Shown: positions 46,786 through 63,932 of the stretch, one piece after another
Layout: every line of letters begins with the position of its first letter
How positions within the stretch are numbered: the stretch's first letter is position 1
Sequence record: NC_054908.1
From: Escherichia phage vB_EcoM_DalCa
DNA length: 64,000 nt
Direction: 5' to 3' (one strand)
Position numbers and translations under genes: made by a program
The notes under the pieces: model-generated
Told to the model about the DNA's origin: nothing
The model's database searches: none
What the model saw: only the letters and a program-made list of their open reading frames with translations

Positions 46786-47151
46786 CTACTTTTTGAAAGT
46801 TTTTCGCAAAAGTTCAATGATTTCATCTACATTGTTTTCGTCAACAATGCAGTGAATTTTTGTTACGCCAGAAACTTTGTCTTTGACTTCATCTTCTTCA
46901 GAAGTCGGTTCTTTATACTCACGAAAACAATGAAATTCGTCTTCACAAACGTTAAAGTAAAAATGCTTTCCATTTGCGCATTCAATGTGTTTTATTACTC
47001 TAAATCCATCAACAAAGAAAGCTTCTTTAACTTCAAACCATCCGCCATTTTCTTGAATAATTTTAACTATTGCTGAATTAGAACGTGGGCGATAATTAAT
47101 AAATGTATCAATAAGTCTTGGAACAAGTTCATACTTTTTACCGATATACAT
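46786..47151 (-). CDS. Hypothetical protein (frd.x block)
   Basis: 121 aa ORF. Confidence 0.6.
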   Translation of the reverse strand: MYIGKKYELVPRLIDTFINYRPRSNSAIVKIIQENGGWFEVKEAFFVDGFRVIKHIECANGKHFYFNVCEDEFHCFREYKEPTSEEDEVKDKVSGVTKIHCIVDENNVDEIIELLRKTFKK

Positions 47152-47195
47152 TATGTTTTCCTCATTTTAACGGGGCTGTAATAGCCCCTTGATAA

Positions 47196-47423
47196 TTATT
47201 GTTCAATCAATCCCATGTAAAATTCTGCGTCTTCAGAATCCATACCATCACAATATTCATTAGCCATAAAGCGGGTGAGGTCTTCAAGAGGACCTTCAAT
47301 AACGATTTGAATACTCCAAAACTTAGAATCTTGCACGCTTGTGATACTAAGTTCAGGATAACGATTACGAATAATTTCTTCGATATATTCAAAATCAACG
47401 ATGTCAATATCAACTTTAGCCAT
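47196..47423 (-). CDS. Hypothetical acidic small protein downstream of gene 32
   Basis: About 75 aa from the ATG at 47423 with AAGAGGAAA RBS; track ORF extends further upstream. Confidence 0.5.
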
Positions 47424-47520
47424 ATTATTTTCCTCTTTAATCATCAGCAGTATTGCCGATAGTTGTATAGTACCATGGAAGGACAAGGATGTAAACCGTT
47501 TTGTGAAAAAATTTTTGAAA

Positions 47521-47545
47521 TAAAAAGGGGACCTCTAGGGTCCCC
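47521..47545 (-). terminator. Rho-independent terminator after gene 32
   Basis: GGGGACC-ctag-AGGTCCCC followed by TTTTTATTT on the minus strand. Confidence 0.7.
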
Positions 47546-47567
47546 AATTAATTAGTAATATAATCTA

Positions 47568-48476
47568 TTAAAGGTCATTCAAAAGGTCATCTAGGTCCGT
47601 GTCATCAGCACTAGATGAACTGCCAGAGCTTGAGCTCATAAAATCATCTTCAGTTTTTGTATTGAAGTCATCAACATTGAATGCATCCAAATCATCAGCA
47701 ACTTTATCAGCTTTCTTAGCAGCAGTTGCAGCAGCACCGCCCATCACAGCAGTTCCCATAACTTGACCGAATTTAGTGCTCAGTTCTTCAAACGATTTGA
47801 ATTTATCTTTAGAAGTCATTTCAGAAAGGTCAACCATTTGTTCGAACAGTTCTTTCTGGAAAGATTCATCGTCAATGTTTGGAATCGCAGATTGATTCAG
47901 GAATTTAGATTCGTCGTAGTTACTAAATCCAGAAACCTGTTTAACTTTCAGTACAAAGTTAGCACCTTCCCACGGACAAGTTACATCAACCGGAGTTTCA
48001 CCCATTTCAACATCAACTGCAATCATTGCGTTGATTTTATCCCAGATTTTCTTACCGAAACGGTATTTAAATACTTTACCTTCATTTTCTGGAGCAGCTG
48101 GGTCTTTTACTACAAGAATGTTAGCCCAGTAAGAAGTTTTACGTTTAACAAGACCGTACTCTTTATTGTCAGTGTTATACAAATCATTTTTACTGATGTA
48201 CTGACATACTGGACAAGAATCGTAATCACCGTGGGTAGATGAACAGTTTTCAATATACCATTTACCATTTTTCTTGAAACCGTGATTTACAAGAATTGCG
48301 AATGGTGCTTGTTCATCATTTTTAGACGGAAGAAAACGAATTACTGCTTGACCGTTACCCGCATTGTCGAGTTTCAGTTTCCACTCGCCTTTATCTTCAG
48401 AAGAAAAACCACCTTTATTTCCAGCCAGTTTAGCCATTTGTGCAGCGAGTTCAGCAGTAGATTTACGTTTAAACAT
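47568..48476 (-). CDS. 32: Single-stranded DNA-binding protein gp32
   Basis: 302 aa; acidic Ser/Asp-rich C-terminus; pseudoknot-like leader upstream; strong terminator downstream. Confidence 0.95.
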
Positions 48477-48508
48477 TTTTATTTCCTTTTTAATTTAATT
48501 AACAGTTG

Positions 48509-48543
48509 GTGCTATGACGATGTATGACCTCATAGCTGGTCAG
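48509..48543 (-). promoter_or_regulatory. Gene 32 mRNA leader pseudoknot-like element (translational operator)
   Basis: Minus strand UGACC-AGCUAUGA-GGUCA-uacaucg-UCAUAGC: two interleaved stems, followed by an A/U-rich stretch to the ATG. Confidence 0.55.
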
Positions 48544-48550
48544 TGAGGTA

Positions 48551-48576
48551 ATTATAATCTATTTATAATAAGCAAT
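48551..48576 (-). promoter_or_regulatory. Gene 32 promoter cluster (MotA-box-like ATTGCTTAT, TATAAATA and TATAAT)
   Basis: Minus strand reads ATTGCTTATTATAAATAGATTATAAT upstream of the gene 32 leader. Confidence 0.5.
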
Positions 48577-49229
48577 TAATACCTACAAGATTTCACAGTT
48601 TCAATGAAAACACTTTTAGCTTTCTGTGAATCAATATTTAAAATTTTTCTATAAGCCTTTAACTTTATAGAATAATTATTCCAGACTAAATTATCAGTCT
48701 GTTCATCATGTTTATCAATTATATTTAAAAACGAATCAAGCAAGATAAACGTTTCAAACGAAATTATATTCGATTGAAGTAGTTTAAAAATATAACTTGA
48801 TTGAACTTTTGGATTATACTCAAAGATTTCTTTAAAAGCAGAAACTTCAACTTTTTTACTAAAATAATAAATGTTGCGAATATCTTCTTCAAACTTAAAT
48901 TTAATTTGCTTTAAGCGTCCGATATATTCACGATAAAACACAAGTGCATCAGCGTCAGAGATGTCACCAATCCAAGCATCTTGGTTAGCTACAAGATTGC
49001 TAATAAAAATTAAAGTTAATTCTTTTAATTTATACTTTTCTGATAGCTTTTGGAAAAAATACTTATCCCTTCGCTTTTGATAAGCGGCATCAGACACCCG
49101 CATGCACCAATTATACTTAATTACATCATACTTTCCATTCATATGTTGTTTTATCATTAAGTATAATTTATAAACTGATTTACCATCAATGTATCTTTCA
49201 CCACCAGCAGGCATGCGGAGTTTAATCAT
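48576..49229 (-). CDS. 59: Helicase loader gp59
   Basis: 217 aa, same length as T4 gp59; order 59-32. Confidence 0.9.
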   Translation of the reverse strand: MIKLRMPAGGERYIDGKSVYKLYLMIKQHMNGKYDVIKYNWCMRVSDAAYQKRRDKYFFQKLSEKYKLKELTLIFISNLVANQDAWIGDISDADALVFYREYIGRLKQIKFKFEEDIRNIYYFSKKVEVSAFKEIFEYNPKVQSSYIFKLLQSNIISFETFILLDSFLNIIDKHDEQTDNLVWNNYSIKLKAYRKILNIDSQKAKSVFIETVKSCRY

Positions 49230-49564
49230 AGTAGAAAATCTAATGTATTAGTTTTTTCACAACGAACAACAGAAGGACGTAAAAGATTTTCGTCAATGGC
49301 TTCTGACTGAATTTTTTCAATTATACCCGAAGGAATAAATTTAGCAAATTGAGTTTCAGGAATAGAGTTTTCTTCCAAGAATGCTGTCGTAGCTTCAAGA
49401 TAACTCATTCCAAACTCTTCTACCATTTTTTCAATGATAAATCCATTTTCTTGACGATCGAGAAGCTTTGCTATTTCATCCTTTTCTTTCTTAATTGAAA
49501 GTTCTTTTTCTGAAAGTCCGGTCTCATCGACCGGACGAATATCATTTAGAGAAAACTGTGTCAT
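49226..49564 (-). CDS. 33: Late transcription co-activator gp33
   Basis: About 112 aa from the internal ATG; coupled to gp59. Confidence 0.85.
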   Translation of the reverse strand: MTQFSLNDIRPVDETGLSEKELSIKKEKDEIAKLLDRQENGFIIEKMVEEFGMSYLEATTAFLEENSIPETQFAKFIPSGIIEKIQSEAIDENLLRPSVVRCEKTNTLDFLL

Positions 49565-49811
49565 AAAGTTCAACTACCTCTTCAGTTTCAGCTTCAAACA
49601 CATCACGATTATCTTTATGATACAAAGCTAATAGACGATTAAACATCTTACCATCAACGCCAAGTTCATCTTTGGCACGAATTCGAATATCTTTAATCAG
49701 TTCATTATAACCGGAAATTTTCAGTTTATGATCAGATGCTTCTTTAATAAATTTAGCCAAGTCTTCGCCATGGATAGCTTCATCAAATTCAACCATTTCT
49801 TTTTTAGCCAT
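49542..49811 (-). CDS. dsbA: DsbA double-stranded DNA-binding protein
   Basis: 89 aa; position between rnh and 33. Confidence 0.8.
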   Translation of the reverse strand: MAKKEMVEFDEAIHGEDLAKFIKEASDHKLKISGYNELIKDIRIRAKDELGVDGKMFNRLLALYHKDNRDVFEAETEEVVELYDTVFSK

Positions 49812-49819
49812 TATTCACC

Positions 49820-50737
49820 TCAAAATTCATTAATGCTATTAGTTAATTTAGAAAGACCCGCTTTTACAAAATATGAATAAATTTTGCCACGCGGTGGTAA
49901 TTTATATGAATTATAGTAATTCACAATGTTTGAAGCAATATTATCAGGAATATAATCAAAATCAATTAGAACTAAATTTTCTTTATAACGATTATATTCA
50001 GATTCTGTGAGAAGCACCTTAGCTTGTTCACGGTCATTAGCAATAGCTTCAACGATTGAAGTTTTCATTGAAGGAGTTCGTTCACCTTCAACTTTGGTAA
50101 ACCAAAAGTCAGATCGTACTTTAACTGAAGCAACGTTATCCTTTTTGTCACCTTTAAGGATTTTAGTCATACAGTCAATTTCAGCAGAACCGCTTTTAAT
50201 TTTAACCCATTTCTTATGCATCGGTGACCATTGCTTAACATTTGGGTATTTGTGAAGCTGTGTAAAGTCACCATCCGACGAAATGATTAAAATCTTATGT
50301 CCTTCTAAAGAGAACTTTTTAACAAGAACAGCAATATGGTCATCTGCTTCATACTTATCAATATCCATAACAATGTATGGCATATAAGCTTTCAATTCAT
50401 CTATAACTTTATGACTGGATTCAAAATAACCTTCCCAGTCCCAAGTAGATTCTTCTCGTGCTTTTCCACGGTTTTTCTTATAATAATAAGCGAAATCACG
50501 ACGCCAGTATCCAGATTTCGCGTTATCAATACACAGTACAATTTTAGTGTATCCAAGCGTTTTTGCTTTTTTGACATTAAACTTAATTGAGTTCAATATC
50601 AAATGACGAACCATTGATAAATTAATTTTTTCTTTATCTGGGAAGTTTACCAGAGCAGTTGAAAGAGCAATTTGACTAAAGTCAATAAAGCAAATTCCTT
50701 CTTTGTAATCTTCATCCAGCATCATTTCTAAATCCAT
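49820..50737 (-). CDS. rnh: RNase H (5'-3' exonuclease / flap endonuclease)
   Basis: About 305 aa from the ATG at 50737; position before gene 34. Confidence 0.85.
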   Translation of the reverse strand: MDLEMMLDEDYKEGICFIDFSQIALSTALVNFPDKEKINLSMVRHLILNSIKFNVKKAKTLGYTKIVLCIDNAKSGYWRRDFAYYYKKNRGKAREESTWDWEGYFESSHKVIDELKAYMPYIVMDIDKYEADDHIAVLVKKFSLEGHKILIISSDGDFTQLHKYPNVKQWSPMHKKWVKIKSGSAEIDCMTKILKGDKKDNVASVKVRSDFWFTKVEGERTPSMKTSIVEAIANDREQAKVLLTESEYNRYKENLVLIDFDYIPDNIASNIVNYYNSYKLPPRGKIYSYFVKAGLSKLTNSINEF

Positions 50738-60389: not shown

Positions 60390-61046
60390 ATGGCAGCACC
60401 TAGAATATCATTTTCGCCCTCTGATATTCTGTTTGGTGTTCTAGATCGCTTGTTCAAAGATAACGCTACCGGGAAGGTTCTTGCTTCCCGAGTAGCTGTC
60501 GTAATTCTTTTATTTATGATGGCGATTGTTTGGTATAGGGGAGATAGTTTCTTTGAGTACTATAAGCAATCAAAGTATGAAACATACAGTGAAATTATTG
60601 AAAAGGAAAGAAATGCACGCTTTGAATCTGTCGCCCTGGAACAACTCCAGATAGTTCATATATCATCTGAGGCAGACTTTAGTGCGGTGTATTCTTTCCG
60701 CCCTAAAAACTTAAACTATTTTGTTGATATTATAGCATATGAAGGAAAATTACCTTCAACAATAAGTGAAAAATCACTTGGAGGATATCCTGTTGATAAA
60801 ACTATGGATGAATATACAGTTCATTTAAATGGACGTCATTATTATTCCGACTCAAAATTTGCTTTTTTACCAACTAAAAAGCCTACTCCCGAAATAAACT
60901 ACATGTACAGTTGTCCATATTTTAATTTGGATAATATCTATGCTGGAACAATAACCATGTACTGGTATAGAAATGATCATATAAGTAATGACCGCCTTGA
61001 ATCAATATGTGCTCAGGCGGCCAGAATATTAGGAAGGGCTAAATAA
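60390..61046 (+). CDS. t: Holin T
   Basis: 218 aa; single N-terminal TM segment and large periplasmic domain; position after 38. Confidence 0.9.
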   Translation: MAAPRISFSPSDILFGVLDRLFKDNATGKVLASRVAVVILLFMMAIVWYRGDSFFEYYKQSKYETYSEIIEKERNARFESVALEQLQIVHISSEADFSAVYSFRPKNLNYFVDIIAYEGKLPSTISEKSLGGYPVDKTMDEYTVHLNGRHYYSDSKFAFLPTKKPTPEINYMYSCPYFNLDNIYAGTITMYWYRNDHISNDRLESICAQAARILGRAK

Positions 61047-61319
61047 TTATTTGTTCGTATACATCTCTAGATATCGATATACACCCTCAAAACCCTCGTT
61101 GAATTCGTCGATGAGGGTTTTCTTATCTTCTTGAGTTAATTCAGAAACAATTTTACGGAATGAATTCTGATTTAACTTTCTACCTTCATGCGTTACTCCA
61201 ATCTCATTCAGAAATGCAATAAAATTAGCACGATTCTCAACAATATCTTCTCTGGAAAATTTAATCAAAATAGACGCAACAGTAATAATTTCACGAACTG
61301 TATCAATGTTTTTATTCAT
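61047..61319 (-). CDS. asiA: Anti-sigma-70 factor AsiA
   Basis: 90 aa; TTTACA-17-TATTAT promoter upstream. Confidence 0.9.
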   Translation of the reverse strand: MNKNIDTVREIITVASILIKFSREDIVENRANFIAFLNEIGVTHEGRKLNQNSFRKIVSELTQEDKKTLIDEFNEGFEGVYRYLEMYTNK

Positions 61320-61331
61320 TAACTATACCAC

Positions 61332-61484
61332 TCAATTAGTTGACTTTGTTATAATATCATCAGACACTTGATTTGTAAACTGGTCTGTGTTATTTTCTTC
61401 AAAAATTTTTTCTACGAATTCCTTGAACGACTCGCGTTCCTGAGCTACATTATGCTCGATTACCATTTCAAGATTATGACTCAT
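61332..61484 (-). CDS. Candidate 50 aa ORF (MSHNLEMVIEHNVAQERESF...) not in ORF track
   Basis: Its ATG overlaps the arn stop codon (ATGA coupling); contains the asiA promoter in its 3' part. Confidence 0.4.
   Translation of the reverse strand: MSHNLEMVIEHNVAQERESFKEFVEKIFEENNTDQFTNQVSDDIITKSTN
61351..61379 (-). promoter_or_regulatory. Early sigma-70 promoter for asiA (TTTACA-17-TATTAT)
   Basis: Good -35/-10 with 17 bp spacer about 30 bp upstream of the asiA ATG. Confidence 0.5.
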
Positions 61485-61759
61485 TCGAAATAATCTTCAA
61501 TTTCGTAATCATGGACATAAATCATTATAGTTTTTAATACATCATCAATACTTTTTCCTGGAGCTGGAATTACGTAAAAATATCCTGCTTTTGAGAGGTC
61601 TTTATAAGTTCCAATCAAGAAATCATTATTCTCAAGATGTAACTCTTCAACTAATTCATTGACAATTGAATGGTATAGGTTTGGTAGAAACTTATATAGC
61701 TTTTCTAGAATATCAATTTTGATTGTGTATTGAACCACGGACTGAGAATCAATAATCAT
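61481..61759 (-). CDS. arn: Arn-like anti-restriction protein
   Basis: 92 aa acidic protein; position between asiA and motA. Confidence 0.75.
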   Translation of the reverse strand: MIIDSQSVVQYTIKIDILEKLYKFLPNLYHSIVNELVEELHLENNDFLIGTYKDLSKAGYFYVIPAPGKSIDDVLKTIMIYVHDYEIEDYFE

Positions 61760-63296: not shown

Positions 63297-63932
63297 TCAC
63301 AGTTCAGATGCTACAGTGATTACAGCTTCAATGTTTTCTGCCGAGCGTTTAATGTCAAGATACACATTACCGTTTTTAGCGATTTTACATGACATTCCGA
63401 TATCAGTAAATTTCTGAATATGATGTTCCATCATTTTGTATCCAAAAATTCGCATATTTCCATTATTGTTAATTTCAAAATTACGAATTCCGTGAGTGCG
63501 TTTTTCTAAAATGGCAAGATAATTACTACGATAAGTTTCAACCTTTTTAAGAACAAATCCATTTTCATCTAAAAGTTTTAACATGAGGTCTTTATCTTCT
63601 TCCATATCAGAAGTAATCTCACGAGCTTTACGAGTTGCTCGTTTTTTCAGTAGTTCAGGAGCATTTTCCTGTGCATATAAAGTTGCCGCATTTGAAATAA
63701 TATCCTGAGCTTCACCAGTAATGATTAATCCATCACCAGATTTCTCCACCAGGCCTTTTTTAATCAATACCCCAATATTACTATTAACTACTGCGTTACC
63801 TAAATCTGGATGCACCTCACGAACTTCTGCGGCTGTAATGAAATCTTTCTTAGCAATGGTAATTAAAATCGCAGCAGTTTTTTCATTCAGAACATCGTTA
63901 GAAGCTTTGATGATGTAAGTTACTTTAGACAT
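63297..63932 (-). CDS. motA: MotA middle-promoter transcription activator
   Basis: 211 aa, same length as T4 MotA; position. Confidence 0.9.
   Translation of the reverse strand: MSKVTYIIKASNDVLNEKTAAILITIAKKDFITAAEVREVHPDLGNAVVNSNIGVLIKKGLVEKSGDGLIITGEAQDIISNAATLYAQENAPELLKKRATRKAREITSDMEEDKDLMLKLLDENGFVLKKVETYRSNYLAILEKRTHGIRNFEINNNGNMRIFGYKMMEHHIQKFTDIGMSCKIAKNGNVYLDIKRSAENIEAVITVASEL

Follow-up and report, generated by a model that had tools for sequence, protein, structure and literature searches.

Organization of the gene 59-gene 32 region

The DNA analyzed here is a 64,000-nucleotide (nt) stretch of the Escherichia phage vB_EcoM_DalCa record NC_054908.1, referred to throughout as the window. 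On its minus strand, genes 59 and 32 are separated by a gap of 99 nt, which holds most of the features described below (Table 1). The TAA stop codon of gene 59 (48578-48576) forms the 5' bound of the regulatory region, and the gene 32 open reading frame runs from an AUG at 48476 to a stop at 47568. Gene 32 is both the regulated gene and the regulator. Read 5' to 3', the leader RNA is UAA-UUGCUUAUUAUAAAUAGAUUAUAAUUACCUCAC-(UGACC)-A-(GCUAUGA)-(GGUCA)-UACAUCG-(UCAUAGC)-ACCAACUGUUAAUUAAAUUAAAAAGGAAAUAAAA-AUG, where parentheses mark the paired segments. An intrinsic terminator closes the transcription unit on the 3' side of gene 32 and is kept in five of six T4-like genomes. One further open reading frame, on the plus strand at 48282-48527 (81 amino acids, GTG start), lies antisense to the gene 32 start and leader and was taken as spurious.

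Judged by sequence, the window comes from a T2-like Tequatrovirus. Roughly 2460 phage records have a match to its gp32, those of T2-like phages at 99-100% identity, and a 301-nt query across the region matched 499 records of phages, almost all of them no less than 90% identical. The query is covered to at least 80% in 491 of these records, which thus have the arrangement without the segG gene.

Table 1. Features of the gene 32 leader and related genes in the window
Feature	Position	Strand	Remarks
Gene 32 (302 amino acids, single-stranded DNA binding protein)	47568..48476	-	Open reading frame; Pfam PF08804, E 9e-67
Gene 59 (helicase loader)	48576..49229	-	Open reading frame; Pfam T4_Gp59_N, E 2e-53, and T4_Gp59_C, E 7e-52
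Intrinsic terminator, end of gene 32 transcription unit	47527..47545	-	GGGGACC-loop-GGTCCCC followed by T run
MotA-box-like AATTGCTTAT	48568..48577	-	8/10 of WWWTGCTTtA; core TGCTT (48574-48570) intact; putative function
Late promoter motif, T4-type, TATAAATA	48560..48567	-	Within middle-promoter spacer; exact match; putative
-10 hexamer TATAAT	48551..48556	-	Perfect; 11-bp spacer from MotA box
AAUUA, RNase E-type motif	48549..48553	-	6 nt 5' of stem 1; candidate counterpart of T4 '-71' site
Stem 1, 5' arm UGACC	48538..48542	-	Starts at -66 from AUG; covariation at 4/5 pairs
Loop 1, single A	48537..48537	-	A in 13/13 distinct pseudoknot leaders; A was not demanded by the scan
Stem 2, 5' arm GCUAUGA	48530..48536	-	Covariation at 4-5/7 pairs; 100% of cells paired
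Stem 1, 3' arm GGUCA	48525..48529	-	Adjoins stem 2 with 0 junction nt (coaxial-stacking geometry)
Loop 2, UACAUCG	48518..48524	-	7 nt (T4: 5 nt)
Stem 2, 3' arm UCAUAGC	48511..48517	-	
A/U-rich operator segment	48477..48510	-	34 nt; 82% A+U; unpaired in minimum-free-energy fold
MotA	63300-63932		PF09158 and PF09114
AsiA	61050-61319		PF09010
gp33 (late co-activator)	49229-49573		Encoded in window; gp55 lies outside window

Interleaved helices and an A/U-rich segment

The initial annotation had proposed that the minus-strand RNA upstream of gene 32 can form two interleaved helices, UGACC/GGUCA and GCUAUGA/UCAUAGC, followed by a long, unstructured A/U-rich stretch up to the AUG. Both helices are present base for base, with 48542-48538 pairing with 48529-48525 in stem 1 and 48536-48530 with 48517-48511 in stem 2, and the stretch that follows has the length, composition and unpaired state given in Table 1. 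All 12 pairs are Watson-Crick, 6 of them G-C. Because the two stems interleave, they can form together only as an H-type pseudoknot. Taken as isolated hairpins, stem 1 and stem 2 have energies of -6.3 and -8.3 kcal/mol, respectively, and each is stable alone.

The A/U-rich segment contains AACUGU at 48507-48502, UUAA/UUAAA repeats at about 48502-48491, a UUAAAAA, and the Shine-Dalgarno sequence AGGA at 48487-48484, 7 nt 5' of the AUG. By analogy with the known operator, we propose that this segment would serve as the lattice for cooperative binding of gp32, occluding the ribosome-binding site.

Folding and chance tests on the single sequence

When the 150 nt upstream were dinucleotide-shuffled and scanned loosely for pseudoknots, with G-U pairs allowed and flexible loops, 19% of the shuffles reached 12 pairs or more. 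The pair count of a single sequence is therefore weak evidence, and the loose scan was dropped as a statistic in favor of a geometry-restricted scan and cross-locus controls. When the scan was confined to the classical H-type geometry (a 1-nt loop 1, no junction nt and a loop 2 of 3-10 nt), which was fixed after the data had been seen, the observed score was reached by none of 5000 shuffles. The nested fold of the region holds stem 2 only and is unremarkable, with a z-score of -1.5; as nested folding is unable to represent a pseudoknot, this result speaks neither for nor against the structure.

A permissive Rfam search of positions 47000-50000 returned no family at its gathering threshold and none for the gene 32 pseudoknot. 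The best match overlapping the element was to DUF2815 RNA, whose score of 19.1 bits (E 3.5) falls short of the threshold of 41.2; it aligned over the ribosome-binding-site part alone and was rejected as chance-level, as was an antisense snoRNA-like match (E 2.2). Since Rfam holds no family for the element, there is no curated model to score it against.

Comparative evidence for the pseudoknot

The decisive support for the pseudoknot comes from comparative data and not from the single-sequence tests. Gene 32 loci (L numbers below) were gathered from IMG/VR, GenBank phages and metagenomes. A pseudoknot of the same geometry was found in 31 of 162 gene 32 upstream regions, versus 10 of 1032 coding controls of the same length and 2 of 810 shuffled upstream regions. 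In the 31 positive regions, the 3' end of the pseudoknot always lies 29-54 nt before the start codon.

An alignment of 13 distinct pseudoknot leaders, A2, was evaluated by counting pairs with pseudoknot brackets. Across this alignment 96.8% of cells are paired, a figure inflated by five rows (L015, L026 and L115-L117) that came from a scan demanding pairing, while controls in which the 3' partners were slid by 1-3 columns give 28-50%. Both sides have changed at 9 of the 12 pairs, and a covariation score as high was attained by none of 500 shuffles. Stem 2 is paired in every cell, its second position occurring as C-G, G-U, A-U, G-C and U-A; the outermost pair of stem 1 is absent from 5 of the 13 leaders.

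As a check on circularity, a sequence-only nhmmer profile was built from the T2, T4 and RB69 types, which are the experimentally studied ones. This profile recovers L101, L021, L017/L086 and L018 at E values of 0.02 or lower and at the same place. In A3, the alignment of the seven distinct nhmmer-recovered leaders, 97.6% of cells are paired and 8 of the 12 pairs have changed on both sides, with slid controls at 24-50%. The covariation result thus held on the sequence-only subset. Conservation of the paired segments, on which the initial annotation had staked its proposal, is borne out by alignment: over the two sets, both partners have changed at 8-9 of the 12 pairs, pairing is kept in about 97% of cells, and the slid controls range over 24-50%.

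These data also bear on a simpler reading, that the 7-bp hairpin of stem 2 is the sole structure formed and serves as the operator, the complementarity of stem 1 being incidental. The nested minimum-free-energy fold holds stem 2 alone, stem 2 is the stronger of the two helices (-8.3 versus -6.3 kcal/mol), and the missing outermost stem 1 pair in 5 of 13 leaders would fit as well. Yet four of the five stem 1 pairs have changed on both sides and still pair, in 92-94% of cells; stem 1 always adjoins stem 2, and loop 1 is always a 1-nt A. Moreover, the NMR structure of the identical T2 sequence, as reported in a review (PMC3014915), consists of two coaxially stacked helices. We regard the hairpin-only reading as extremely improbable and treat the element below as a pseudoknot.

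The pseudoknot covaries cleanly in at least six lineages and is missing from many other T4-like lineages, so it is dispensable for gene 32 expression in general. Among the metagenomic contigs, L115-L117 carry a pseudoknot of the same geometry, GUCCG-A-GGUGUUG-CGGGC-8 nt-CAACAUC. The gp32 proteins encoded there share about 44% identity with that of the window and at most about 52% with that of any cultured phage. These contigs were found through the structure scan alone, and they are for that reason suggestive, rather than established, as a deep-branching uncultured T4-like lineage that shares the pseudoknot geometry.

Promoter motifs and RNA processing at the 5' end

Immediately 5' of the pseudoknot, the initial annotation had noted a MotA-box-like sequence, TATAAATA and TATAAT within 26 bp and had read them as signs of transcription in several temporal classes. 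The span is as described, running from ATTGCTTAT (48576-48568) through TATAAATA (48567-48560) to TATAAT (48556-48551). The MotA-box-like AATTGCTTAT, which overlaps the gene 59 stop codon, matches the consensus at 8 of 10 positions, the last two being off, and its 11-bp distance from the -10 hexamer compares with a consensus of WWWTGCTTtA and a spacing of 12 +/- 1 bp (PMC2988021). No difference in the stack is seen among the T2-type loci examined. In other lineages, TATAAATA lies 4-5 nt 5' of stem 1 (RB69-type phages, L017, L018 and L021) or 22 nt from it (L015 and L026), and a hexamer resembling TATAAT occupies a similar place in L087 and L115-L117.

Chance is the obvious alternative for motifs this short. 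The MotA box, TATAAATA and TATAAT might all be fortuitous, with RNase E-processed polycistronic transcripts from upstream as the only source of gene 32 expression. The region is A/T-rich, and TATAAATA is expected about 8 times per window (8 +/- 3; 18 copies are observed). A version of the middle-promoter composite with one mismatch is common by chance, and a simple sigma-70 promoter scan reported none at the gene 32 leader. On the other hand, the exact composite TGCTT-N13-TATAAT occurs only once in the 64-kb window, at the gene 32 leader, and the whole stack is invariant across the T2-type loci. At least four other lineages, with flanks that otherwise differ, have TATAAATA 4-22 nt 5' of the pseudoknot, and for gene 32 of T4 proximal promoters of both the middle and the late class are documented (PMC2988022). 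The unique composite makes chance unlikely as an explanation, as does the fact that TATAAATA turns up again at this position where the flanks are unrelated.

We therefore retain the promoter reading at the following strength: the stack is real as sequence and plausible as function. Its function is made plausible by the presence of MotA, AsiA and gp33 among the encoded proteins (Table 1) and by TATAAATA lying 4-22 nt 5' of the pseudoknot in several other genera. Together with the proximal middle and late promoters known in T4, the same features support expression in several temporal classes, as far as motifs can. A MotA-dependent transcript is predicted to start near A48544, about 7 nt after the -10 hexamer and 2 nt before stem 1. 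Judging from where late transcripts usually begin relative to TATAAATA, the late start would presumably lie near 48553-48555, about 12 nt 5' of the pseudoknot.

A processing site may lie in the same interval. In studies of T4 and its relatives, all gene 32 mRNAs are cut at -71 by RNase E, and the site is conserved in five T4-related phages (PMC3014915). When the leaders of T4, T2 and the window are aligned, the '-71' site of T4 falls between GCGA and AUUAUGCC, with GA/AUUA directly before stem 1. The candidate counterpart in the window is AAUUA at 48553-48549, where the exact position of cleavage is a prediction from the motif. In each lineage a promoter -10 hexamer, TATAAATA or an RNase E site sits such that the predicted mRNA start is about 0-20 nt from stem 1.

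Relation to known gene 32 operators

The gene 32 operator described in the literature comprises a 5' pseudoknot and UUAAA/UAAA repeats that overlap the ribosome-binding site, both of which are needed for repression; when gp32 is in excess of single-stranded DNA, it nucleates on the pseudoknot, and from there its cooperative binding extends across the ribosome-binding site (PMC3014915, PMC535899). Repression strictly requires the pseudoknot, on which gp32 leaves a footprint (PMC535899). The likeness to the T4 operator that the initial annotation had drawn agrees with this literature and can be refined, as the window leader, in which stem 1 has 5 bp and loop 2 has 7 nt, represents the T2/T6 version and has a pseudoknot identical to that of T2.

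Compared with T2 (L082), the 32-nt pseudoknot is the same in sequence and in distance to the AUG, and the promoter stack and A/U-rich tail are shared. The leaders match at 146 of 150 positions. None of the four substitutions falls in the pseudoknot, and the only intergenic one, a C in place of U at 48548, lies 3' of the -10 hexamer and 5' of stem 1. The T2 pseudoknot is known from NMR (PDB 2TPK; Holland et al. 1999 as cited in PMC3014915), which in that citation is described as two coaxially stacked A-form helices.

In T4 (McPheeters 1988 and Shamoo 1993, as cited in PMC535899), the architecture and stem 2 are the same, and alignment with the T4 leader shows a shorter T4 variant: UGCC-A-GCUAUGA-GGUA-AAGUG-UCAUAGC, where stem 1 has 4 bp including one G-U (UGCC/GGUA) and loop 2 is the 5-nt AAGUG. 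The T4 pseudoknot starts at -67 (PMC3014915, PMC535899), against -66 in the window. It is followed, as in the window, by ACCAACUGUUAA, UUAAA repeats and the Shine-Dalgarno sequence, with one extra AUUAA, that is, one more UUAAA-type repeat than in the window. T4 also differs in having the homing-endonuclease gene segG, which the window lacks, inserted between genes 59 and 32. As a consequence of this insertion, the T4 pseudoknot overlaps the 3' end of segG (PMC535899), and the proximal middle and late promoters of gene 32 lie within segG (PMC2988022). We find TATAAATA in T4 segG at about -158 and a TGCTT...TATTAT pair at about -236.

The Mosigvirus RB69 (Borjac-Natour et al. 2004), whose gp32 has been shown experimentally to be an autogenous repressor (PMC535899), has a pseudoknot of the same H-type geometry at the same position. 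Its stem 2 carries a compensatory change from U-A to C-G (GCUACGA/UCGUAGC), and AUACC/GGUAU makes up its stem 1. RB69 also has a longer A/U-rich tail, and its TATAAATA is just 4 nt from stem 1.

Outside the phages, Escherichia coli rpsO (S15) likewise has an autoregulatory mRNA pseudoknot at its translation initiation region, a parallel drawn in the review PMC3014915. The sequences are unrelated, and the mechanisms differ: S15 is reported to trap the ribosome on the mRNA, whereas gp32 occludes the site by cooperative binding.

Proposed autoregulation of gene 32

From this evidence we conclude with high confidence that the element represents the T2/T6 form of the translational operator of gene 32, accompanied by proximal promoters that belong to the gene itself. 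The leader is already known; it is textbook biology and not a discovery. Binding of gp32 to the leader and repression of its own translation have been shown for T4 and RB69 (PMC3014915, PMC535899), and from identity with T2 we infer that gp32 probably acts in this way on the leader of the window as well.

The proposed course of events is as follows. RNase E would cut transcripts from distal promoters back to a point just 5' of the pseudoknot, and other transcripts would begin at the stacked middle (MotA box and TATAAT) or late (TATAAATA) promoter, 2-12 nt 5' of it. Through trimming on the one hand and proximal starts on the other, each mature gene 32 mRNA is proposed to begin with the pseudoknot. 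Once free gp32 exceeds the available single-stranded DNA, it would nucleate at or next to the pseudoknot and spread cooperatively in the 3' direction along the UUAAA region, covering the Shine-Dalgarno sequence and the AUG and blocking initiation.

The position of the pseudoknot at the extreme 5' end could also be read in another way, as chiefly a protective structure against 5'-end-dependent decay by RNase E, with nucleation of gp32 being secondary or taking place elsewhere, for example at AACUGU or UUAAA. The placement, in all lineages, of a -10 hexamer, TATAAATA or RNase E site for a start within about 20 nt of stem 1 would suit such a role, as would the fact that gene 32 mRNA, processed at -71, is the most stable T4 message (PMC3014915). 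The retention of AACUGU repeats in lineages lacking the pseudoknot can be counted on the same side. In the literature, however, the pseudoknot is required for repression and contacted by gp32 in footprints (PMC535899). Furthermore, the stability and repressor roles are not mutually exclusive, and the anatomy fits both. That protection is the chief function seems quite unlikely to us, and we keep to the operator reading.

AACUGU in gene 32 leaders

The hexamer AACUGU, which in the window begins 3 nt 3' of the pseudoknot (48507-48502), is the most widespread hexamer among the 90-nt segments preceding gene 32, exceeding even the Shine-Dalgarno hexamer in this respect. It is present in 31 of 37 non-redundant gene 32 leaders, defined as those of phages with a gp32 at least 50% identical to that of the window, versus 64 of 2004 background chunks, a 26-fold enrichment. 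Its extended form is A-M-M-AACUGU-W-A-A, and the copy closest to the AUG lies at a median of -30. As a genome-wide repeat, AACTGTWAA was considered and rejected, with 4 copies in the window versus 2.6 expected.

Some lineages lack the pseudoknot and have hardly any intergenic space (L005-L011, L013, L020, L085, L106 and L109); they carry three to four copies of AACUGU within the end of gene 59. The copies fall in three reading frames of the gene 59 end, which argues for selection at the nucleotide level. A different repeat, AUACAA, is enriched in the gene 32 leaders of marine and cyanophage-like phages (32 of 59).

We tentatively raise the possibility, which we rate below even, that AACUGU is a conserved functional element of the gene 32 leader, acting as a sequence-specific binding determinant for gp32 or another factor or as a translational enhancer or standby site; it would then be wider in distribution than the pseudoknot and might substitute for it where the pseudoknot is missing. 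A search of the literature on AACUGU together with gene 32 found no description of the motif, only unrelated papers. The observation may be new, and it is the sole item here that might repay further work.

Implications

The gene 32 operator is one of the classic cases of translational autoregulation and among the best-studied RNA pseudoknots, and it is re-identified here in a T2-like phage. What the comparison adds is modest: clean covariation of the pseudoknot, the presence in each lineage of a promoter or processing site at the pseudoknot, and AACUGU. If the reading of the metagenomic contigs L115-L117 is true, the operator would be much older than the Tevenvirinae. Reviews leave open how phages without the pseudoknot autoregulate gp32, and for these AACUGU is a concrete, testable candidate.

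A widespread hexamer in gene 32 leaders

The hexamer AACUGU was present in 31 of the 37 non-redundant gene 32 leaders, compared with 3% of background chunks, a 26-fold enrichment. In these leaders it extends to A-M-M-AACUGU-W-A-A, and the median position of its last copy is -30 from the AUG. Lineages without the pseudoknot carry three to four copies, spread over three different reading frames within the 3' end of gene 59. Among the collected gene 32 loci (L-numbers; IMG/VR, GenBank phages, and metagenomes), the hexamer also lies upstream of gene 32 in L005 to L011, L013, L020, L085, L106, and L109. No enrichment of AACUGU was seen elsewhere in the window, and a literature search for the hexamer found no description of it.

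Over the same leader, an Rfam search returned a sub-threshold match to the DUF2815 RNA (RF03084) at 48474-48530 on the minus strand, scoring 19.1 bits (gathering score, 41.2) with an E value of 3.5; the alignment is confined to UUAAAAAGGAAAUAAAAAUG. The DUF2815 RNA motif is found ahead of genes for another family of phage single-stranded-DNA-binding proteins. The score of the match is at chance level.

Genomic arrangement around gene 32

Whereas T4 has segG, a GIY-YIG homing-endonuclease gene, between genes 59 and 32, the window and T2 lack it, and the window therefore holds the segG-less allele. This arrangement, scored as at least 80% coverage of a 301-nt query spanning the region, is found in 491 of 499 matching phage records. 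In T4, the gene 32 promoters were moved into segG by the insertion (PMC2988022), and the 3' end of segG extends into the pseudoknot (PMC535899). Towards its right end, the window encodes AsiA, Arn (a DNA mimic), MotA, and the T holin, with a gene order that matches T4.

Coordinates of features in the window and in compared loci
Feature	Sequence	Coordinates	Remark
AACUGU	window	48502-48507	minus strand, upstream of gene 32
59-32 region	window	48576-48476	compared with T4
59-32 region	T4 (L081, NC_000866)	147854-148542	
T holin	window	60390-61043	
AsiA	window	61050-61319	
Arn	window	61484-61759	
MotA	window	63300-63932	
Pseudoknot	L115, metagenome contig	526-558	structure scan only
Pseudoknot	L116, metagenome contig	525-557	structure scan only
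Pseudoknot	L117, metagenome contig	212-243	structure scan only

Leaders of uncultured and distant relatives

The pseudoknots predicted in L115 to L117 share the geometry of that in the window; they have a 5-bp stem 1, a loop 1 consisting of A, a 7-bp stem 2, and an 8-nt loop 2, and lie ~30 to 40 nt upstream of gene 32. Their gp32 proteins have ~44% identity to that of the window and at most ~52% to that of any cultured phage; these contigs represent an uncultured T4-like lineage.

Marine and cyanophage-like leaders (L028 to L080 and L119 to L174; gp32 identity below 50%) tend to have a short repeat that differs from AACUGU: AUACAA is present in 32 and AAUACG in 20 of 59 distant leaders, 17- to 38-fold above background. 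This suggests that gene 32 leaders have clade-specific repeated elements.
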